From contig JAFWDK010000003.1 in assembly GCA_017513085.1 (NCBI GenBank), forward strand, positions 48,573 through 112,572: a stretch of DNA of 64,000 nt, given 5' to 3'. Positions 15,960-25,963 of this stretch are shown in pieces. Numbering within the stretch: the first letter of the stretch is position 1; every line of letters begins with the position of its first letter. This DNA is from Clostridiales bacterium (GTDB lineage Bacteria; Bacillota; Clostridia; Saccharofermentanales; Saccharofermentanaceae). Both the position numbers and the translations under genes were made by a program. The notes beneath the pieces are model-generated. The model saw nothing but the letters and a program-made list of their open reading frames with translations. It made no database searches and was not told the DNA's origin.

Positions 15960-17828
15960 TTACATAAACAAAGCTGCTACATGATAAACAATGCAGGATA
16001 GGAGCAGTGCTGATCCGAAATAGAAGATGGCTACCCGTGCTGTCCACTTTAAGGAATGGGACTCACGATAAGTCGTAGAGAGAGCCATCACGCACGGAAT
16101 ATTGAACGTCACGGCAAACATGAATGCCAGAGCTTCTGCCGAAGAGACCGCATTACTCATGACCGTAGAAAGCGTACCTGCATCCGCTCCACTTGTTTTA
16201 GCATTAAATGTCGCATTGAGGAGTGAATTATCACCTACAAATACAGAGTTCAGGACACCGAGAACTGCTTCTTTTGCAAAGGCCGAGCTTAAGAATGCCA
16301 TAAAAGTACGCCATCCCATACCGAAGAACTTGGTCACCGGCTCGATCGCCGTACCGGCTTTATAAAGGATACTGTCTTCAACTTTTCCGCTTCCACTGTA
16401 TGAAAGTGCCCAGAACAGAAGCGAGATCAAGGTCACCGTCCGAAGCGCACGGAAGAAGATATCGGAAGACTTAAAGAAGGATTCTTTCCAGATATGTTTC
16501 CAGTGAGCTTTGTGATACGGCGGAAGCTCCATGATCATACCGGTACGGCTCTCAATAGGTGCAAGTTTTTTACCGAAGATCTTGGATACAAGAAAGATCA
16601 TCACAAAGATATAAAGAAGGATCCCGATGCAGATCAGCAGCGTTCCCCATGCCGGGAAGAACATACCGGAAATGACCGGCACGATCGCCCAGATCGATGC
16701 ACACGGGATGGCCCATACTGCTGCCATCGCCAGCATCTTCTGTCCCCAGTTATCCATGACACGGGTACCACAGGAACCTCCGATCGTACAGCCGAACCCC
16801 ATAAGAAGCGGAGCGACCGCCTTGCCTTGAAGGCCGATCTTGCTTAATACGCCATCGAACTGATATGCGGCTCTTGCCAAAAAACCAACTTCTTCCAGGA
16901 AGCCGAAAACAAGATTTACACCAAGTACAAAAGCGGCCATAGAAAGAGAGAAATAGACTACATTCGGCAGCATCAGACTGAATATCGATACCAGCCATGG
17001 ATGAACGTTCCATCCCGTCAAAGCATCTGCGATCGGCCCGCTGGTATACTGTGGAATCATGGATCCAATGCTCATAAACGGAATACAAATGATCATCGCC
17101 ACCAAGAAAGCTAGAAGAATAATACCGATAGTAACAACTTTTCCAAGGACCGGACGGATCGCGATACGGTCAAATTTAGATAAGGAATACTTTTCATCTT
17201 TGGTTTTCGTTACGCCATCGAGGATCTCCGAAACCCACTGGAATTTCGTTTCACTTTCTGCCTTCAGCTGATCCGCGCTCATCTTATCCTTTGCTCCATT
17301 TCCCGAAGCCAGATAGGGAGCCGAGGAAAGAGTATGCGGAGCAGAGAGTTCCTTCACGATCAACTCTTTCAGTTTCCCATATTCTTTTCCTTCCGCCGCT
17401 GTGAACGGAAGGACCGGGATACCCAGACGCGAGGAAAGAAGATCAACATCAATAGTTTTGTTCTGCTTTTCCGCCACGTCCATCATGTTCAGGATCAGGA
17501 TCGCAGGTTTCCCCATCGAGGCAAATTCCGATACCATATACATGCTTCTCTCAAGCTGGGAAGCATCGACCAGTATACATACCAGATCAGCTTTCCCGCT
17601 TTTTATAAAATCCTCTGTGATGATCTCTTCATCCGAGTTTCCGGAAAGCGCGTAGCTGCCGGGAAGGTCAACCAGATTATATTTCGTTCCGTTATAAGAA
17701 AAAGAACCATCCTTCTTTTCGACAGTCTTACACGGCCAGTTACCAACATGCTGACGGGCACCGGTCAATTGATTAAATACAGTGGACTTACCGGAGTTCG
17801 GCTGTCCCAGAAGTGCAATCGTGCTCAT
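15960..17828 (-). CDS. feoB: Ferrous iron transporter FeoB
   Basis: GQPNSGKS G1, DLPG G3, NMMD G4, LMGFGC, MELPPY, AKE gate motifs. Confidence 0.93.
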   Translation of the reverse strand: MSTIALLGQPNSGKSTVFNQLTGARQHVGNWPCKTVEKKDGSFSYNGTKYNLVDLPGSYALSGNSDEEIITEDFIKSGKADLVCILVDASQLERSMYMVSEFASMGKPAILILNMMDVAEKQNKTIDVDLLSSRLGIPVLPFTAAEGKEYGKLKELIVKELSAPHTLSSAPYLASGNGAKDKMSADQLKAESETKFQWVSEILDGVTKTKDEKYSLSKFDRIAIRPVLGKVVTIGIILLAFLVAMIICIPFMSIGSMIPQYTSGPIADALTGWNVHPWLVSIFSLMLPNVVYFSLSMAAFVLGVNLVFGFLEEVGFLARAAYQFDGVLSKIGLQGKAVAPLLMGFGCTIGGSCGTRVMDNWGQKMLAMAAVWAIPCASIWAIVPVISGMFFPAWGTLLICIGILLYIFVMIFLVSKIFGKKLAPIESRTGMIMELPPYHKAHWKHIWKESFFKSSDIFFRALRTVTLISLLFWALSYSGSGKVEDSILYKAGTAIEPVTKFFGMGWRTFMAFLSSAFAKEAVLGVLNSVFVGDNSLLNATFNAKTSGADAGTLSTVMSNAVSSAEALAFMFAVTFNIPCVMALSTTYRESHSLKWTARVAIFYFGSALLLSCIVYHVAALFM

Positions 17829-18052
17829 TATACCTTCACCTCCACTTCGATCCTCTCGCAATCCTTACGATTCAAAGCCAGAAGTGTTTCCCGCGCATAA
17901 ATCAGAAGCGGCATCTTCTTATCATTACGAACGACCTGTATACGAGTCCCTTCAGTTAATCCGATCGAAGTTACGCGTGACAGGAAATGCGTATCCGAAC
18001 CCAGCGTCCGTATAGTCGCCATCTGATCCACTCTTACATCACTAAGTCTCAT
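17828..18052 (-). CDS. feoA: Ferrous iron transport protein FeoA
   Basis: 74-aa SH3-like, SIGLTEGTRI...PLLIYARETLLAL; stop overlaps feoB start. Confidence 0.9.
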   Translation of the reverse strand: MRLSDVRVDQMATIRTLGSDTHFLSRVTSIGLTEGTRIQVVRNDKKMPLLIYARETLLALNRKDCERIEVEVKV

Positions 18053-18203: not shown

Positions 18204-18836
18204 TCATTTTTCACAGAACGAAGCATTTCGAAGAGTAATATATCTATTGTCTCCTTCCATATAGGTATCAAATACTCCCCTCACCATACACTCTTCGCCA
18301 ATATCCGGATAATCATCCGGGAAAGTTCCTTCTTTTTCCATTTCAAATTCGATTCCCTGGGCACAACACTGTGTTGCATCCTGGATCACGCAGGCATAAT
18401 AACGGATGCCGTTGCTCTCATCGTATGCCGTTGCAAAAGCGCCCTTCATCTTAACTACTGTGCCTACATACTTTTCCGGATCGATGGACATACTATACAC
18501 CGTTGCATATACTGCACCTGAAGAAAGCACAGTAAGATCGATATCTACACCTTCTTCGTTCTTAGCAAAAGACGGAACAGGCTCAGAAGGAAGTGCCGCG
18601 GCTGAAGTATAGGCCGGCAAAGACGTAAAATCCTGCACGATCTGTTCAGTTTCTATTCCCGATCCCGAAGATCGTCCTTCCAATCCTGATTGAAGAATAT
18701 CTCCCACACCCGTCTGCTTGCTGGAAGCATGTCCTCCTGCCACCGCACCTGTTTGCGTATTTCCGCATCCTGGCAAAGAAAGAACGATAAGACATATTAT
18801 AGAAACAATTCTTACTCTTACGATAATCCTGCTCAT
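18204..18836 (-). CDS. Lipoprotein with CxxxDATxCC motif, last gene of Zn-uptake operon
   Basis: Lipobox LPGC; YACVIQDATQCCAQGIEF; overlaps znuB stop. Confidence 0.7.
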   Translation of the reverse strand: MSRIIVRVRIVSIICLIVLSLPGCGNTQTGAVAGGHASSKQTGVGDILQSGLEGRSSGSGIETEQIVQDFTSLPAYTSAAALPSEPVPSFAKNEEGVDIDLTVLSSGAVYATVYSMSIDPEKYVGTVVKMKGAFATAYDESNGIRYYACVIQDATQCCAQGIEFEMEKEGTFPDDYPDIGEECMVRGVFDTYMEGDNRYITLRNASFCEK

Positions 18837-19675
18837 GCCCGCACACCTCCTTTAGTTTTTCCTATCAGAAAGCAAATCAAAAAACCAACCACATCAACTG
18901 TCACGATCGTAGATCCTACCGGTGTCGAATACATAAGCGCAATCACGATTCCGGCAAGTGTACAGATCAGTGACAACAGAGCAGCAAAAACCGTGACTGA
19001 ACGAAAACTCTTGAAGATCCTCATCGACGACAGAGCCGGAAAAATCACCAGTGCAGAAATAAGAAGTGATCCTACGAGATTCATCGCGAGAACGATAATA
19101 ACAGCAATCATGACCGCAATGAGGAAATGATACAGTTCCACTTTCATTCCGATGGCTCGTGAAAACTGTTCATCGAATGTTACACAGAAGATTTTGTTAT
19201 ATAACAAAATGAATCCGATAAAAACAAGAATGGAAAGGACCACACAAAGCCAAACTTCGGTCACCGATAATGTTAAGATCGAGGTCGAACCGAAGAGCGT
19301 AGTACATACATCCCCGGAAAGATTTGACGAAGTGGAAAACAAGTTCATCAGAAGATACCCGAATGCCAACGCTCCCACAGAGATCATCGCAATCAGGGCA
19401 TCCCCCTTCAGCTTCGCATTTTGTCCGGTACGAAGAAGAAGGATCGCGCAGATTATCGTAACCGGAAGGACAAGAAGCATCTCATTCGTAAGTCCGACCA
19501 CTGCCGCAACACTCATCGCGCCAAAAGCCACGTGTGACAGACCATCTCCGATATAGGAATACCGTTTCAAAACCAACGTCACACCCAGAAGCGCGGAGCA
19601 AAAAGCAATCAGAACACTGACGATCAAGGCTCTTTGCACCAAAGGCAACTGTAAATACATCCAGAGTTTATCCAT
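18833..19675 (-). CDS. znuB: Zn/Mn ABC transporter permease
   Basis: IGDGLSHVAFG, LFGS, VGSLLISAL motifs (ABC-3 family). Confidence 0.88.
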   Translation of the reverse strand: MDKLWMYLQLPLVQRALIVSVLIAFCSALLGVTLVLKRYSYIGDGLSHVAFGAMSVAAVVGLTNEMLLVLPVTIICAILLLRTGQNAKLKGDALIAMISVGALAFGYLLMNLFSTSSNLSGDVCTTLFGSTSILTLSVTEVWLCVVLSILVFIGFILLYNKIFCVTFDEQFSRAIGMKVELYHFLIAVMIAVIIVLAMNLVGSLLISALVIFPALSSMRIFKSFRSVTVFAALLSLICTLAGIVIALMYSTPVGSTIVTVDVVGFLICFLIGKTKGGVRA

Positions 19676-20375
19676 CGTAGCCCACCTCCTTTAAAAAATT
19701 GCTTCCGATATCGCTGTTCATATATTCATTTTTCGTGCCGAAGTGCACTGTCGTTCCAATATGCAGAATATGACTCGCATAGCGAAGTGCTGCAGCAATA
19801 TCGTGGGAGATCATGATCACCGTAAGGCCTTGTCCATGTAGTTCCTCAATTAAGTCATACATTTCACATGTCACTTTAGGATCCAATCCTGATACCGGTT
19901 CATCCATCAGCAAAAGTTTTCCTGATGCGCAAAGTGCCCTTGCAAGAAGGACCCGCTGTTGCTGTCCACCGGACAATTCACGGTAACACCTTTTACCAAG
20001 ATCTGTGATGTGCATCCTCTCCATAGCGTGATATGCTTTTTCTTTCTCGTCTTTCAGGTAAAAAGGCCGAAATCCGGCGCGTCCCTGACATCCGGACAGA
20101 ACAACTTCTGTCACGGATGCGGGGAAATCGCGCTGAACCAGAGTCTGCTGCGGAAGATATCCGATTTCATCGGCCTTCAGACCATCACCCATAATAATCT
20201 GTCCGGAAATCGGAGGTTGAAGGTGAAGAACCGTACGTATCAGAGTTGTTTTTCCGGATCCGTTCTCCCCGACAATACACAGATAATCTCCTCTTTGGAC
20301 TTGAAAACTCAAAGGCGGCAGGATAGCTTTTGATTCATATCCCAGCACCAGTTTCTCGATAGTCAGAAACGCCAT
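19668..20375 (-). CDS. znuC: Zn/Mn ABC transporter ATPase
   Basis: GENGSGKT, IGYLPQ, DFPASV, LSGGQQQRVLLARAL. Confidence 0.88.
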   Translation of the reverse strand: MAFLTIEKLVLGYESKAILPPLSFQVQRGDYLCIVGENGSGKTTLIRTVLHLQPPISGQIIMGDGLKADEIGYLPQQTLVQRDFPASVTEVVLSGCQGRAGFRPFYLKDEKEKAYHAMERMHITDLGKRCYRELSGGQQQRVLLARALCASGKLLLMDEPVSGLDPKVTCEMYDLIEELHGQGLTVIMISHDIAAALRYASHILHIGTTVHFGTKNEYMNSDIGSNFLKEVGYDG

Positions 20376-20392: not shown

Positions 20393-21445
20393 TTATGCGC
20401 CCAAGGCCTCTTTTAGTGCTTTTAGATTGGATTTCATCACGGAAAGATATGTTTTCCCATTTTTCACGTCGTCTCCGGTCGTCGACTGCAAAGAATCCAT
20501 CACCAGGATCTTTTTTCCTGACCCGGAAGCATTCTCCAAAACCGTTTCTGCGATTTTGTGTTGAGTTCCCTCAATCGTCAATACTGCCGGAAGATTCAGT
20601 TCATCCACTTTCCCTGACAGGAAGACGATCGTTTCGAAGCTGGCTTCACTCTCTGCCGAGCATCCGGTAAAAGCAGCATAATAAGTGAGGCCATAATCAT
20701 CTGCCATATATCTGAAAGGGAATCGGTCTGCAAACAGTATTGTCTTACAGGATGACTTCTCCACAACCTCTTTATACTCATTATCCAGAGTTTCCAGTTC
20801 GGAAATATAGGCATCCAGATTTTTCTTATAAATTCCTTTATGTTCCGGTATCAACTTCTCCAGTTCTGCTTCGATCTTCGTGCAGATCACCTTGGCGTGA
20901 CGAAGTGAAAGCCATACATGCTCATCATATTCAGGTTCCTCATGCTCATGATCATGATCGTGTTCTTCCTCATGGTCGTGGTCTTCGTCATGGTCATGTT
21001 CTTCCTCATGGTCATGTTCTTCCTCATGGTCGTGGTCATGTTCGTGTTCCATACCTTCGACCACTTCTTCTATTTTAACGTTGTCGCCAAGCACCTCAAG
21101 GAGATCGATCACGACCATATCTTTATTGGAAGCCTGTTTCAAAACATCGTCTACCCACTCGTCAGACTCTCCCCCTACATACACAAACATATCGCACGTT
21201 GTGATCTTAAGGATATCTTCCGCAGTAGGTTGATACGAGTGAAGATCCACTCCTTTATCCAAGAGCATCGTGACATCCGCATCTTCTTTATTCTCTCCAA
21301 GGATCGACATGACCCAGTCATATTCCGGGAAGATCGTTGTCACGATCGAGATTTTTTTCGAATCTTTTTTCTTTGTGTTTTGGCAAGCAGAAAAGCTCAC
21401 TGCAGTCGCTACTGCAGCAAGAAAACCGATTAATCTTTTATTCAT
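20393..21445 (-). CDS. znuA: Zinc ABC substrate-binding lipoprotein with His/Asp/Glu-rich loop (ZnuA/AdcA)
   Basis: Lipobox FSAC, DLHSYQP, (HDHEEE)n loop, DEHVWLS; GGAGG RBS before ATG 21445. Confidence 0.9.
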   Translation of the reverse strand: MNKRLIGFLAAVATAVSFSACQNTKKKDSKKISIVTTIFPEYDWVMSILGENKEDADVTMLLDKGVDLHSYQPTAEDILKITTCDMFVYVGGESDEWVDDVLKQASNKDMVVIDLLEVLGDNVKIEEVVEGMEHEHDHDHEEEHDHEEEHDHDEDHDHEEEHDHDHEHEEPEYDEHVWLSLRHAKVICTKIEAELEKLIPEHKGIYKKNLDAYISELETLDNEYKEVVEKSSCKTILFADRFPFRYMADDYGLTYYAAFTGCSAESEASFETIVFLSGKVDELNLPAVLTIEGTQHKIAETVLENASGSGKKILVMDSLQSTTGDDVKNGKTYLSVMKSNLKALKEALGA

Positions 21446-21450
21446 TTTTT

Positions 21451-21495
21451 TCCTCCACGAATTGATATATGAGTTAGAATCAAATCGTGGATGGA
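21451..21495 (-). promoter_or_regulatory. Hairpin sequestering the znuA Shine-Dalgarno
   Basis: mRNA UCC-A-UCCACGA-U-UUGAU...AUCAA-U-UCGUGGAGGA starts immediately after the upstream TGA. Confidence 0.6.
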
Positions 21496-21813
21496 TCAAT
21501 TATTCAATTGTATCTTACGGGAAACCGGAGTCGGACGCACCTGCACCCACACGGAAAAGGTAAGGATCGCATAAAAAACGGAAAGGCCGATAACCGCCAT
21601 ACCCGCATGACAGCATACTTCTTTCATGCCGGAGAGAACTTTCTCACACTGCGCCATGATCTCGCAGATCGGGCAATGTTCCTCTTCACACTCGTGATTC
21701 ATCTCCACGAACAAAAATAATCCAGAGAAAAGAATGGAGAATGTGATCAATAAACCGAGAAAAACGGAAGCCAATCGTAGAAGTTTCGAAGTCTTCTTTT
21801 GCCCTTTCTCCAT
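21496..21813 (-). CDS. Small two-TM Cys/His leader protein (HECEEEHCPIC) heading the Zn operon
   Basis: 105 aa, AAGGAG RBS, TM-HxCxxxHCPIC-TM, C-terminal PTPVSRKIQLNN. Confidence 0.75.
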   Translation of the reverse strand: MEKGQKKTSKLLRLASVFLGLLITFSILFSGLFLFVEMNHECEEEHCPICEIMAQCEKVLSGMKEVCCHAGMAVIGLSVFYAILTFSVWVQVRPTPVSRKIQLNN

Positions 21814-21842
21814 TTTTTCTCTCCTTTTTCCTTTTCAAAAGC

Positions 21843-21898
21843 GAAGCGTATAATTGCGAATCATTCGCAATTATACGCTTCCGTAAAATCTCTGTCAA
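21843..21898 (-). promoter_or_regulatory. Consensus sigma-A promoter (TTGACA-17-TATAAT) overlapped by Zur-like box inside a 39-bp perfect palindrome
   Basis: GAAGCGTATAATTGCGAAT-C-ATTCGCAATTATACGCTTC 21843-21881; -35 at 21898-21893, -10 at 21875-21870. Confidence 0.8.
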
Positions 21899-21922
21899 AC
21901 CTGTTTTTCTATAATCTCACTT

Positions 21923-24157
21923 CTATTCCTGATTATTCTTCAGGCTCTCCACCATCTCTACCTTTTTCACCTTCGAAGACAGGAGGAACATGGAGATCAC
22001 ATAGGATGCAAGAGTGATTCCCACACAGATCAGGAGCGACTTGGGCGTGACATAGTTCTCAATAAAGGAATTATACTTCGCCGTCTGGGATTCAAAGTTC
22101 AGCCGGTTCAGAACCGTGCCCAGCCAGATACCCAGAGCGATACCGATCGGCAGAAGCAGATGATAAATATAGGTCACGATGCGGTTGATCTCCCCGTCCC
22201 TATAACCCAGCACCTTCAGCATCGAGATCACCGAAGTACTCTCATTGAGAAGGATATTTACCATCAGGTATGTCGTGATGACCGAGATAATGACTGCGAT
22301 CACCGTGATCGGCATCAAAAGATCTTTCATGCCCTGATTGATCGTCTTATCCAGCGCTTCCGAAAGAGAAGATTTGCTCACTTCACGCAGAAGCTCCGAA
22401 TCTCTGTATGGCAGCTTCTCCTTGCTCATGACCAGCGTATAGGCGTTCTCCGGCATAGAAAGGAGCTTGTTGACCGAGGATCGGGATGCAACCATCAAAG
22501 ACTGCGAACCGTTGACAAAAACTCCATCCACATGGACCGGATACTCTTTAAGATCCGCGATATTTCTTATAGTAATGGTATCTCCGGCTTTCACGTGATA
22601 TGCAAAAGCACTCATCTCGGAGATATAGAATTTGTCCTCATCAAGTGGGAACTCATTTCCATCCGAGTCTTTTACATGGATCATCGAAGTATCGTCGATT
22701 CCCATCAGGGTGATCAGGTCCGGGTTATCCTTGACTTCAAAGGAAGCTGCCATCACTGCCGCTCCCTTATCCGGAACTCCGGTCTTTACCGAAGAAAGAA
22801 AGTATTCGTATTCAAATTCACCTGTCTCTTTCACGCTGGTGTCGACATATCTCTGGATCGAGTCCACGCAGGCGAAGGTAAATGCCACCAGTGTGCCGCC
22901 CAGCGCGATGCCGCAGATGACCAGAAGGGTTCTGGGGAGATGGCCGAACACAGCGCGAAGCTTATACTTTGTTCTGAAACTTAACTTCGCCTTTCGAAGT
23001 CCCATCCTCTTCTTCTTATTCTTCTTAAGGCCCTTGATCATGTCGATCGCTGACCCGCGCATGTTGATAAGCGCAGTAATAAAAACTGCGATCACATAGC
23101 ACGCGGTAGGAAGCACAAGTGCAATAAGAGAGGATTTCCAGGTGATGTGTGTCACTTTATAGAAGACTTCCATCTTATCCTCGATCAGCATATCTGAAAG
23201 AGGAGCAAGTGCCGGGATCGAAAAAAGAACACCCAGGATACCACCAAGAATTCCCGGAATTGCGCCCAGCACACTGTAATGCAGAGCCAGTTCATACCGC
23301 TTATATCCCAAGGCATGGAGGACACCGATCATCTTTCTCTCGTTTTTGATCTTACGACCCAGCACGACCGCGATCAGAAGCACCATGAACACCATCGTTG
23401 TCGGCAGGATGATTTGCACGGTATAACTTAATTCATCGAACTGATCTTTCGGGCTCTGAATACGGGAGTTATTACTGACATCCACATAGGACAGCGTCCC
23501 GTACTTCTCGTTCAGTGCTTTTCGAAAAGCCGTCACGTCAGTCTTATCACTATATCGAACAGCATAAACTGTCGCCATATCCTTTTTCTCATATGTGACA
23601 AAAGCACTTTCCTTCACCACACCGATGCCAAACCGGTCGCTGTCGGAAAAGGTATCCGTGATGTTTTTCAGGCAGAAAAGATAGTCCGTGCGGATGACTT
23701 CGCCACAGATGTGATAGGTCCTTCCGTCAAGATCGATACTATCGCCGATCTCGAGGTTCTGGCGTTGCATAAAAAGCCCATTTAGAAGAATATCTGTATC
23801 GGACTCAAGATCCCTGCCATCCTGCACCCTGTATAGATTGATCGCTGAAGAGGGAGCAAAGATTCGGACCTCCGCTTCCGAGTTTTCCATATGAAGATCG
23901 ATATAAGGCTGTGTTTCCACAGTAACGTGGTGCTTTTCTTCCAGTTCCTGTACATCATCGATCGGCAGCAGTGTCATAAACTGCGCGTCTTCCAGCTGTG
24001 CCTCATCCAGAAGCTTATTAAAACTTTCCTGTTGTACCCCGTAAGAGGAATCGAATGCCACATACAGACATACCACAAGTGCCGTCAGTATCGTTATACT
24101 CAAGAAAAATGACAAATTACTTCGGAAATTCCGGATATATCTTTTATTCAGTACCAT
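21923..24157 (-). CDS. FtsX/MacB-like ABC permease (two permease domains)
   Basis: IGVLHALGY and ISMLKVLGY repeats, large extracellular loops, C-terminal ESLKN. Confidence 0.85.
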   Translation of the reverse strand: MVLNKRYIRNFRSNLSFFLSITILTALVVCLYVAFDSSYGVQQESFNKLLDEAQLEDAQFMTLLPIDDVQELEEKHHVTVETQPYIDLHMENSEAEVRIFAPSSAINLYRVQDGRDLESDTDILLNGLFMQRQNLEIGDSIDLDGRTYHICGEVIRTDYLFCLKNITDTFSDSDRFGIGVVKESAFVTYEKKDMATVYAVRYSDKTDVTAFRKALNEKYGTLSYVDVSNNSRIQSPKDQFDELSYTVQIILPTTMVFMVLLIAVVLGRKIKNERKMIGVLHALGYKRYELALHYSVLGAIPGILGGILGVLFSIPALAPLSDMLIEDKMEVFYKVTHITWKSSLIALVLPTACYVIAVFITALINMRGSAIDMIKGLKKNKKKRMGLRKAKLSFRTKYKLRAVFGHLPRTLLVICGIALGGTLVAFTFACVDSIQRYVDTSVKETGEFEYEYFLSSVKTGVPDKGAAVMAASFEVKDNPDLITLMGIDDTSMIHVKDSDGNEFPLDEDKFYISEMSAFAYHVKAGDTITIRNIADLKEYPVHVDGVFVNGSQSLMVASRSSVNKLLSMPENAYTLVMSKEKLPYRDSELLREVSKSSLSEALDKTINQGMKDLLMPITVIAVIISVITTYLMVNILLNESTSVISMLKVLGYRDGEINRIVTYIYHLLLPIGIALGIWLGTVLNRLNFESQTAKYNSFIENYVTPKSLLICVGITLASYVISMFLLSSKVKKVEMVESLKNNQE

Positions 24158-24168
24158 ACTCCGTCACC

Positions 24169-24867
24169 TCAGATCTCAAGGTCCGAAACCGGAAGTTTCT
24201 TTCTGTTCATGCTGTTCTCGACGATCTTTCCGTCATGGATCCGTATGATCCTGTCCGCCATTCCGGCGATACCTTCGTTGTGGGTAATGATCAGTATCGT
24301 CGTCTTAAATTCCCTGTTGATCTTCTCCAGCATCATCAATACATCCCGTGACGATTTCGAATCCAGCGCGCCGGTCAATTCATCGCAAAGGAGGATCTGC
24401 GGATTCTTCACCAGCGCACGGGCAATTGCGCAGCGCTGCTGCTGACCGCCGGACAGTTCCCGCGGGAACTTATGTTTATGCTTGGCAAGATTCAACGTTT
24501 CCAGAAGATCGTCGATCGACAGAGGCTCTTTCGATATATCCGCCACCACTTCCACATTCTCCCGCACGGTCAGATCCGGGATCAGGTTATAGGATTGAAA
24601 AACAAATCCCACATGTTTTCTCCGATACTCCGAAAGGCCGCTCTTCCCTTGGGATGTGAGTTCCGTTTTTCCGATCCGTATCACACCGGAATCCGGTGAA
24701 TCGATTCCACCCAGCATATTTAACAGCGTGGATTTTCCCGAACCGGAAGGTCCCAGGATCACTGTAATTTCTCCTTGTTCCGCGGAAAAGTCCACCCCGT
24801 CCATAGCACGGATCAGGCTCTCTCCGCTCCCATACTGTTTAACCGCATTTTTCACTTCAATAAACAT
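24169..24867 (-). CDS. ABC ATPase (LolD/MacB-type)
   Basis: GPSGSGKS, GFVFQSYNL, LCDELTGALD. Confidence 0.9.
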   Translation of the reverse strand: MFIEVKNAVKQYGSGESLIRAMDGVDFSAEQGEITVILGPSGSGKSTLLNMLGGIDSPDSGVIRIGKTELTSQGKSGLSEYRRKHVGFVFQSYNLIPDLTVRENVEVVADISKEPLSIDDLLETLNLAKHKHKFPRELSGGQQQRCAIARALVKNPQILLCDELTGALDSKSSRDVLMMLEKINREFKTTILIITHNEGIAGMADRIIRIHDGKIVENSMNRKKLPVSDLEI

Positions 24868-24958
24868 CGCTTCTTCTCCTTTTTTCGTGTTTTGGGACGT
24901 AGGAAACTCCACCCTTACATTCGTAAAGGCACTTGTTTCACTGAATGTCCATTCATTC

Positions 24959-25963
24959 TTAAGTATGTAATCGACGATATTCGGTCGGTGTCACTCCATA
25001 TGTCTTCTTAAAAAGCGCACAGAACTTACTCGGATTGCTGTATCCGGCTTCTTCCGCCAGATCCGCGATACTTTTTCTCGTTTTCCGAAGATCTTCTTCC
25101 GCCTTTTGCAGCCGGACATTCTGAAGGAATGTATAGATCGGAGCACCATATACTTTCCGGAAATACATCTTCAGCGCCGGTGCTGTACAATGAAGTTCTT
25201 CTGCCAGTTCTTCCGCCGTCAGATGAATGCTTGGATCCTGTAGTATCCGTCTTCTCGCGTCTTCTGCGATCTTCCTTTGACCGGAAGTGGTATATTCGCT
25301 TTTCCGGAGCGGTTCCACATCTTCGTGAAGAAGAAGATAAAGAAGTCTCGTACTCTGCATCCTTGCCCGCGGTAGATCCATGGTCCGGTCATCGATCCCC
25401 TTCGCCAGATCCTCCACGATCTGGCGGAATTCAGCAGATGCATTTCCCACGAAGCATTCTCTATCCCTTTCGATCAGGTTCATACAGGCTTCTTTAGTGA
25501 TGCCATAGTAAGAAAGCGTGGTCCGGTCATTGTCACTCATGAGTTCGAAGTTAAAATACAGACCGAATCCTTGATAGTATTCTTTCCGGAACGTCAGCAT
25601 GACTTGAGGATCATTCTCATCGAATCCGATCATACCTTTATCCAGATAGGCATACTTTCCTTTCCCCCTCATGAATACTTCGACGCGTCCGTCCATGCAA
25701 TAGTTCAGTTTAAAGAAACGGAGCCGGTCTGTAAGAACAGGACGCCGTCCATCAATATGTGCACCAAATTCAAGTTCTCTCGGGATCGTGTAGTAGAATA
25801 TCCCCATACCTTCGAAGGGCATCACCACATACGCCTCGACCGCTTCATCATCACGAGGTGATGCTTTTAGCTCCATCTTGGTAATCCATTCAGATGCACG
25901 TGCAAAATGCACTATATCATCCAAAGGAACCGGGGAAACTTTTTTGACCAGATCTTCAAACAT
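24959..25963 (-). CDS. AraC-family regulator (PchR/YbtA-like)
   Basis: LKMYFRKVYG...RLQKA...AGYSNPSKFCALFKKTYGVTP. Confidence 0.9.
   Translation of the reverse strand: MFEDLVKKVSPVPLDDIVHFARASEWITKMELKASPRDDEAVEAYVVMPFEGMGIFYYTIPRELEFGAHIDGRRPVLTDRLRFFKLNYCMDGRVEVFMRGKGKYAYLDKGMIGFDENDPQVMLTFRKEYYQGFGLYFNFELMSDNDRTTLSYYGITKEACMNLIERDRECFVGNASAEFRQIVEDLAKGIDDRTMDLPRARMQSTRLLYLLLHEDVEPLRKSEYTTSGQRKIAEDARRRILQDPSIHLTAEELAEELHCTAPALKMYFRKVYGAPIYTFLQNVRLQKAEEDLRKTRKSIADLAEEAGYSNPSKFCALFKKTYGVTPTEYRRLHT

Follow-up and report, generated by a model that had tools for sequence, protein, structure and literature searches.

A conserved two-helix leader protein and a Shine-Dalgarno-masking hairpin at the head of a znuA operon in Clostridia: a candidate zinc-responsive leader

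In Rhodobacter capsulatus, the DUF2946 protein CutF is a copper-sensing nascent exported protein encoded upstream of cutO (PMC9973294; 10.1101/2025.02.05.636593). A second DUF2946 protein, CruR of Bordetella pertussis, is encoded by an upstream open reading frame (uORF), carries a RAPP motif and acts through Rho-dependent termination; metal perception by its CxxC motif alters arrest, and the importer is off when metal is present (PMC9426467). A comparable arrangement precedes a zinc importer operon in a window of 64,000 nucleotides (nt) from a Clostridiales bacterium of the family Saccharofermentanaceae (assembly GCA_017513085.1, contig JAFWDK010000003.1, positions 48,573 to 112,572 of the forward strand; all positions below are those of the window). 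The first gene of this operon, at 21813..21496 on the minus strand, encodes a 105-residue protein with two predicted transmembrane (TM) segments and a Cys/His loop, as an initial annotation made from the letters had described, and it ends directly before a hairpin that masks znuA's Shine-Dalgarno (SD) sequence. This open reading frame (ORF) is proposed to be a cis-acting leader and not merely the first structural gene: a ribosome terminating or stalled on it would unmask the znuA SD, and zinc would tune the event. The chances of this are judged to be about even. The regulatory architecture of leader plus hairpin is real, strongly conserved and well supported, while arrest and zinc sensing are plausible.

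Like CutF, the leader is a small protein before a metal-homeostasis gene, with an N-terminal targeting segment, an extracytoplasmic Cys motif and a conserved, stalling-like C-terminus (PMC9973294). In both cases a stem-loop covers the next gene's ribosome-binding site, and CutF must act in cis (PMC9973294; 10.1101/2025.02.05.636593). Unlike CutF as described in these sources, the leader lacks a proline-rich motif, is built of two helices where CutF has a cleavable signal peptide, carries H-C-C-C in place of CxxxC, and has a C-terminal motif that abuts the stop codon; it precedes a zinc importer rather than a copper detoxifier and belongs to Bacillota rather than to Pseudomonadota or Bacteroidota. 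CruR had been invoked in the initial annotation, but for an SD-shielding stem-loop the nearest precedent is CutF and not CruR, which uses Rho-dependent termination and RAPP. With CruR the leader shares its place in a metal importer operon, and shut-off of the importer by metal is the logic that would be expected for znuA by analogy. In contrast, CruR responds to copper, controls a TonB-dependent transporter, arrests through RAPP with a Rho-dependent output, and has no sequence relationship to the leader (PMC9426467).

The DUF2946 copper leaders are the closest known systems, and other features of the CutF-CruR-CopL type are present. At fewer than 150 residues the leader combines a targeting segment at the N-terminus with a Cys/His motif, and it precedes a same-strand metal gene at a short spacer; such a gene (znuA or znuB) follows in 57/57 loci. 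However, the filter of PMC9973294, which as given there asks for PP, PPP or RAPP within the last 15 residues, finds nothing in the leader. PF11162, the DUF2946 family, was not matched at E<=10 by the window protein or three relatives, nor is it among the 25 families most often matched by 111 members at E<=10. Because both the PF11162 match and the proline-rich motif are missing, the leader family is, by these profile comparisons, not a member of DUF2946. In the ESM Atlas the nearest named cluster to the leader is DUF2946 (0.86, 120 shared features), which serves as a lead only. The words zinc, ZnuA, Firmicutes and Bacillota do not occur in the main text of PMC9973294, the supplementary lists of which could hold such cases.

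Arrest peptides provide the second point of comparison. In MifM, CliM and SecM a stalled ribosome opens an SD-sequestering stem-loop (PMC4423224, PMC13183943, PMC10987492), and Cd CliM, from Clostridia, is described as arresting at the termination stage with the stop codon in the A site (PMC13183943). An N-terminal TM segment, a variable spacer, a conserved C-terminal motif and the SD-sequestering stem-loop are common to these proteins and the leader, a likeness confined to architecture: MifM, CliM and SecM lie upstream of yidC or sec genes and report insertion or secretion capacity, whereas the leader lies upstream of znuA and has a metal site. In-silico screens for arrest peptides have included 'motif-stop' classes (PMC10987492). 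Among the features sought by Fujiwara et al. 2024 in that work, the leader has the N-terminal TM segment, the conserved C-terminus, a spacer longer than 30 residues (about 66, from the end of TM1 near residue 39 to the C-terminus at 105) and an SD-sequestering stem-loop where a stalled ribosome would disrupt it. It has no annotated function, as sought there, but is followed by znuA and not by a sec or yidC gene. The critical MifM residues Arg79/Met80/Asn81 lie at the tunnel constriction, 8-10 residues from the P site (PMC4423224), and given that position their likeness to the R-L/M-N of the leader tail is treated as coincidence. Finally, in a fusion of the ADR1a zinc finger to SecM, Zn-dependent folding cancels SecM arrest in vitro (PMC4571824). 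A small Cys/His domain pulling on the chain from a set distance is the principle proposed here for the leader. The fusion differs in being engineered and in having its optimum at 24-26 residues, while in the leader the distance is 55 residues, mostly predicted to be helical, and the domain is flanked by membrane segments.

In the window, the minus strand of 21430-21515 folds with a minimum free energy (MFE) of -19.4 kcal/mol, the stem begins at the first base 3' of the TGA, and all six bases of the znuA SD are paired, precisely as had been claimed. Dinucleotide shuffles of the region (n = 200) have a mean of -10.61 kcal/mol (standard deviation (sd) 2.77, z = -3.17), and 2 of the 200 fold as well as the native sequence. 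A duplex of the first 20 nt counted from the stop with the 24 nt preceding the znuA start amounts to -20.0 kcal/mol. A background of 276 co-directional gene pairs with gaps of 40-140 nt was taken from the same genome by crude ORF calls (at least 150 residues with an SD), and none of these pairs reaches -18 kcal/mol (mean -5.73, sd 2.80). No terminator-like element is present between leader and znuA in the window. An in-frame TTG overlapping the leader stop was considered as an alternative, longer znuA start and rejected, being open in only 4/30 loci.

The hairpin and the C-terminal tail had been put forward as features whose lack of conservation would count against the proposal. Both are kept well beyond close relatives, and the arms co-vary. 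After removal of duplicates, 57 unique loci were compared. In 45/57 loci, against 42/276 background pairs, the MFE structure joins at least three bases of the znuA SD to the segment of nt 1-18 counted from the stop, and the partners of the SD typically lie at nt 5-14 from the leader stop. Mean arm duplex energies are -12.15 kcal/mol for cognate arms, -8.15 for arms swapped between loci, -6.6 when the 5' arms are shuffled and -5.73 in the genome background. Not one of 5000 arm permutations reaches the cognate mean, and the same holds for a set of 45 loci that differ from each other at >12 of 44 arm positions. Since kinship cannot make two segments of one locus complementary, the excess of the cognate arms represents covariation. 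Alignment with MAFFT followed by RNAalifold yielded 0 pairs for 25 short-spacer loci, because the anti-SD strand shifts register, and the alignment-free comparison of cognate and swapped arms was used for that reason. Among five close relatives, RNAalifold finds 9 pairs, and 2 of these show compensatory changes; a covariance model made from the five recovers only the same five at significant E-values. A scan of 21300-22000 against Rfam gave nothing near any gathering score.

The second conserved element is the end of the leader protein, which reads ...VEMNHECEEEHCPICEIMAQCEKVLSGMKEVCCHAG...VRPTPVSRKIQLNN-TGA. Detailed statistics come from the 150 best of 1202 representative relatives and from a separate 111-sequence alignment. 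In the former set the tail has the consensus T-P/L-V-S-x-K-V/I-R/Q-L/M-N-N/D-stop, with an information content, counted without gaps from the C-terminus, of 2.8-3.8 bits at positions -11 to -1 (except -7) as against at most 1.02 bits at -24 to -12. A loose form of the motif stands at the very end in 143/150 without a single-residue insertion or deletion relative to the stop codon; a stricter pattern matches 87/150, and the remainder are near variants. In the 111-sequence alignment T95, V97 and K100 are conserved at 90% or more. The codons are much freer: in 55 unique loci the tail residues T, P, V, S, K, R and L each use 2-5 synonymous codons (for T, ACA 26, ACT 18, ACG 4 and ACC 3; for K, AAG 28 and AAA 26; five each for R and L). 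This free synonymous variation indicates selection on the amino acids of the tail and not on its nucleotides. The genome holds no second leader of this kind, a single ORF ending with the tail motif.

The termination site itself was also compared in the 55 loci. The last sense codon (21499..21501 in the window) is always NAT or ATY (AAT 37, GAT 10, ATT 6, ATC 2) and never AAC or GAC, while the penultimate Asn is read from AAT in 31 loci and AAC in 16, and the base after the stop is T in 48/55. This codon and base pattern is a constraint at the nucleotide or tRNA level, unlike the rest of the tail. In the 57 loci the leader stops with TGA 47 times, TAA 10 times and TAG 0 times, compared with 1072/938/191 genome-wide, a bias that is suggestive at most given the relatedness of the loci.

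The third element is the candidate metal site. H40, C42, C47 and C50 are invariant and C56 is conserved at 90% or more in the 111 sequences, and H-x-C-x(3-6)-C-x-x-C occurs in 146/150 of the best representatives. The CCH triplet, which the initial annotation had listed after HECEEEHCPIC, is not conserved and drops out. The distance from the last Cys of the CxxC to the C-terminus is exactly 55 residues in 116/146 representatives and 53-57 in 144/146, and the sequence between CxxC and tail is barely conserved despite its constant length. That the invariant knuckle keeps a set distance of 55 residues suggests a ruler. The roughly 13 extended residues of the tail and a 45-residue helix would together approximate the length of the exit tunnel, in which case the knuckle would be emerging as the ribosome reaches the stop.

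An AlphaFold2 model from the family alignment is a helical hairpin with a mean predicted local distance difference test (pLDDT) score of 88.9 and the ligands on the turn. It comprises an N-terminal K/R stretch, a first helix at 10-39 (TM1), the turn at 40-47, a second helix at 48-92 of which the first half is polar and the second is TM2, and a coil tail at 93-105. Over 120 members the mean counts of K+R versus D+E are 3.4/0.6 ahead of TM1, with 1.5/6.2 for the loop and 2.9/1.0 for the tail. By the positive-inside rule, both termini are predicted to be cytoplasmic and the metal knuckle to lie outside the cell.

Based on these features, the following sequence of events is proposed. Transcription would start from a promoter whose -10 hexamer overlaps a Fur/Zur-type palindrome. 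In the transcript the znuA ribosome-binding site would be locked in a helix, its partner strand lying about 4-14 nt past the leader stop. A ribosome with a stop codon in its A site protects about 12-13 nt counted from the first base of the stop, as toeprints indicate. Because this footprint covers the anti-SD arm, translation of the leader to its end very probably opens the znuA SD, and ZnuA synthesis would then follow the frequency and duration of stop occupancy. The last 11 residues, lying between the peptidyl-transferase centre and the tunnel constriction, would slow or arrest termination. Such pausing or arrest is proposed because the tail is fixed at the stop, is conserved like the metal ligands and spans towards the constriction, and it could equally turn out either way. 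The H-C-C-C knuckle, 55 residues upstream at the extracytoplasmic tip of the hairpin, would bind Zn, and membrane insertion or a folding force on the nascent chain would shorten or lengthen the pause, so that ZnuA output would be coupled to zinc on top of control by Zur. The response may take either sign, with a shorter pause and importer off in the presence of zinc, as for CruR, or a longer pause, as with copper for CutF. In its most specific form, in which a proline-poor tail hinders the release factor and Zn-dependent folding or insertion of a knuckle 55 residues away times the opening of the SD, the leader would be the first natural zinc-sensing arrest peptide, a tentative proposal that is somewhat doubtful at present.

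The main competing explanation is that the protein is a mature accessory subunit, a membrane-anchored extracytoplasmic Zn knuckle that feeds ZnuA/ZnuB or stabilises the permease, with the tail as a contact or sorting motif and the hairpin as an ordinary coupling device by which the components are produced together. This is judged rather unlikely, although much of the protein evidence suits it: the fold is a confident helical hairpin, the four-ligand site is invariant, the positive-inside charges are typical of a stable membrane protein, and linkage to znuACB is strict. In addition, CbtB (PF09489), a small cobalt-transporter subunit, resembles the leader in its small size, its place in the membrane, a stretch of metal ligands following a TM segment and a gene next to those of a metal transporter, and 31/111 members match it weakly over the N-terminus and TM1 with 15-21 bits. 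All of these matches fall under the Pfam gathering cut-off of 27 (the best has E 4e-4 and 20.9 bits, and the window protein has none), they are confined to that region, and the CbtB family description gives no conserved tail or hairpin. A predicted complex of two ZnuB copies with the leader scored 0.00 against a mark of 0.32, which, without controls, is evidence neither way. It also counts against a subunit that sister species use apparent znuA orthologues without the leader, that conservation of the tail equals that of the metal ligands, with no insertion or deletion relative to the stop in 143/150, and that the arms are far more stable than background coupling (mean -12.15 versus -5.73 kcal/mol).

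Alternatively, the intergenic structure may act mainly on the transcript, through attenuation, termination or stability, with leader translation gating RNA polymerase into znuA. CruR works in this manner through transcription termination (PMC9426467), and 17/31 loci with a spacer of at least 69 nt (L009, L010, L012, L013, L015, L016, L018, L019, L021, L033, L034, L047, L053, L055, L056, L059, L065) have a terminator-like element, a stable inner hairpin of -9.7 to -26.4 kcal/mol with a U-rich tract behind it. In 15 of them the distance from the stop to the start of this hairpin is 15-20 nt, and in L056 and L059 it is 36-39 nt. The element is nested inside the anti-SD:SD helix just past the expected ribosome footprint, and it is flagged by a terminator scan as well in L018; it may add transcription attenuation in long-spacer species. 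As a general explanation this is improbable, since the window and most short-spacer loci (46-58 nt) are without a terminator-like element and the family-wide feature is SD pairing and not the U-tract. That tail and hairpin are unrelated neighbours, the hairpin being due to chance or generic, is close to refuted: the two shuffles that fold as well as the window region speak for it, but the hairpin recurs beside the stop in distant lineages with different arms, and the permutations never match it. Several further observations weigh against the proposed leader function. A mature membrane protein, too, could have a conserved cytoplasmic tail and a helix of fixed length, and masking of an SD by the end of the preceding gene, a common device found to some degree in 42/276 background pairs, gives plain translational coupling without arrest. 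The tail has no Pro-Pro, RAPP or other proline-rich element, only a single Pro at -10 in 112/150, replaced by Leu in 36/150. The SD is not paired with the post-stop segment in the MFE structure of 12/57 loci: in L024, L027, L029, L033, L034 and L046 a helix starts at the stop and closes a few bases upstream of the SD, L035, L057 and L071 have no such helix, and L063 is marginal (MFE -1.2 kcal/mol). By a looser criterion (any of nt 1-12 paired with the last 45 nt), 54/57 loci but also 135/276 background pairs are positive, so that only the SD-specific measure and the energies discriminate. The 57 loci are related and not independent, so the counts overstate events, and both znuA starts and background genes were called heuristically.

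In the literature searched, control of bacterial zinc uptake is transcriptional, through Zur, riboswitch and small-RNA layers being known for other metals, and no zinc-responsive leader or arrest peptide at znuA is described. If the proposed function as a zinc-tuned leader holds, the locus would stand beside the copper leaders CutF and CruR as their independently evolved zinc analogue in Bacillota. The extension of their principle to another metal, another phylum and an unrelated family would suggest that metal-sensing leaders evolved repeatedly. The synthetic ADR1a-SecM force sensor would have a natural counterpart in it, and the fixed 55-residue spacing offers a directly testable prediction about the geometry of co-translational force sensing. 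Should the tail stall ribosomes, it would be a new termination-acting arrest sequence, proline-poor and ending in Asn or Asp, and its more than 1000 natural variants would amount to a mutational scan already at hand. The carriers live anaerobically in rumen and gut, conditions under which thiol ligands outside the cytoplasm stay reduced.

Relatives of the leader were collected with a profile from ten close relatives, which at E<=1e-3 retrieved 1202 representative clusters among 1.84 billion. Nearly all of the 150 best representatives are about 100 residues long, and the match extends to the last residue. The family has no above-threshold match in the Pfam and NCBIfam copies searched, and the only source-given name of its members is 'hypothetical protein'. 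One relative (P0006) bears the precomputed label PF28574, an entry that is absent from the Pfam copy searched; it may be a recent entry for the leader family. Among solved structures there was no sequence match to the leader at E<=1 and no Foldseek match at E<=0.001. Two sequences, P0010 (113 residues) and P0011 (64 residues), carry the C-terminal half or tail of the leader on unrelated N-termini. They come from contigs of 632 and 1128 nt, are likely assembly chimeras, and were set aside; one of them carries FabZ-type Pfam labels.

The leader occurs in 50/142 genomes of its own GTDB family, in 3/8 genera. In an even sample of the class it was found in 9/400 genomes, one of these with a broken weak match that was dropped (L037, with three stops and no leader by hidden Markov model), and in a sample of the phylum in 5/401, making the overall distribution patchy. 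The named carrier records are metagenome-assembled genomes from the rumen, assigned to Ruminococcaceae, Clostridiales and Saccharofermentans. Of the 57 unique loci, six belong to other families of the class and three to other classes of the phylum. The architecture foreseen in the initial annotation is family-wide, with an SD-occluding hairpin adjoining the leader stop, a Cys/His loop, a tail of non-RAPP type and, upstream, a Fur-type box. A znuA homologue follows in 56 loci and a znuB homologue in one, at spacers of 46-232 nt (median 69). In the exceptional locus (L065, genome G052) the permease gene, a znuB homologue with 63% identity, follows the leader directly, and the post-stop arm and inner hairpin are retained. 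For comparison, 16 genomes of the GTDB family without a leader match were searched, nine of which have a znuA match. Five znuA orthologues from four sister species without a leader match (52-59% identity over the best matched segments) stand directly behind a TGAGAAC-N3-TTCTCA box, with no leader ORF. From its occurrence, leader plus hairpin looks like an optional cassette inserted between a Fur/Zur-type promoter and znuA.

The operon and its control elements are listed in Table 1. On the minus strand the order is promoter, palindrome, leader ORF, 50-nt spacer, znuA, ABC (ATP-binding cassette) ATPase, ABC-3 permease and 210-residue lipoprotein, and the candidate operator palindrome overlaps the -10 hexamer. 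The genome has two FUR-family (PF01475) genes, putative candidates for Zur. In 22/45 loci with upstream DNA, the best palindrome within 130 nt upstream of the leader is a TGAGAAC-N3-TTCTCA box or of the TTGCGAAT type; the scan reports one palindrome per locus, and misses are not absences.

Table 1. Features of the zinc operon and its leader region in the window.
Feature	Position	Strand	Basis
Sigma-70-type promoter, TTGACA (21898..21893)-17 nt-TATAAT (21875..21870)	21870..21898	-	12/12 consensus matches; consensus match only
41-nt near-perfect palindrome, core AATTGCGAAT-G-ATTCGCAATT, candidate Fur/Zur-type operator	21842..21882	.	19-nt arms, at most 1 mismatch
Leader SD, GGAG, 7 nt 5' of ATG	21821..21824	-	read from sequence
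Leader ORF, 105 residues, stop TGA 21498..21496	21496..21813	-	sequence
Codons 40-50 of leader, HECEEEHCPIC, candidate Zn site at tip of helical hairpin	21664..21696	-	conservation; metal binding predicted
Last 11 codons of leader, TPVSRKIQLNN, family-wide C-terminal motif abutting stop	21499..21531	-	information content
Hairpin: anti-SD 5' arm 21495..21479, 12-nt loop, 3' arm 21466..21451 with the SD	21451..21495	-	MFE, duplex energy, conservation
znuA SD, GGAGGA, all six bases paired, 6 nt 5' of ATG (21445)	21451..21456	-	fold
znuA, lipoprotein substrate-binding protein with long His/Asp/Glu-rich loop	20393..21445	-	PF01297, E 2.6e-67
znuC-like ABC ATPase	19668..20375	-	PF00005
znuB-like ABC-3 permease	18833..19675	-	PF00950; names from sources for homologues
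210-residue Cys-containing lipoprotein, last gene of cluster, 4-nt overlap with znuB	18204..18836	-	no Pfam or NCBIfam family

The make-up of a ZnuABC-type importer is complete (PF01297, PF00950 and PF00005). Since the NCBIfam equivalog scores of the zinc cluster proteins are all below their cut-offs, the case for zinc specificity depends on the name of the family, the His-rich loop and the source names of homologues. The loop, at residues ~130-175 of ZnuA, is a run of about 40 residues in which His alternates with Asp or Glu; such His/acidic loops are known from zinc-specific cluster A-I binding proteins. Among the ZnuB homologues, P0180 (404 residues) has an internal duplication of ~124 residues, which is probably an assembly artefact.

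The C-terminal half of the 210-residue lipoprotein is Cys-rich. For this protein the ESM Atlas gave as a lead only a likeness to DUF1980_C, together with clusters that fuse DUF1980_C to ABC-3 permeases. An ORF with a FeoA domain (17828..18052, minus strand; PF04023, E 7.9e-14) lies just downstream on the same strand, making the neighbourhood rich in metal uptake. Immediately upstream of the zinc promoter, at 21923..25963 on the minus strand, are genes for a 744-residue FtsX/MacB-type permease, its ABC ATPase and an AraC-family regulator, and with its stop at 21923 the permease gene comes to within about 25 nt of that promoter's -35 hexamer.

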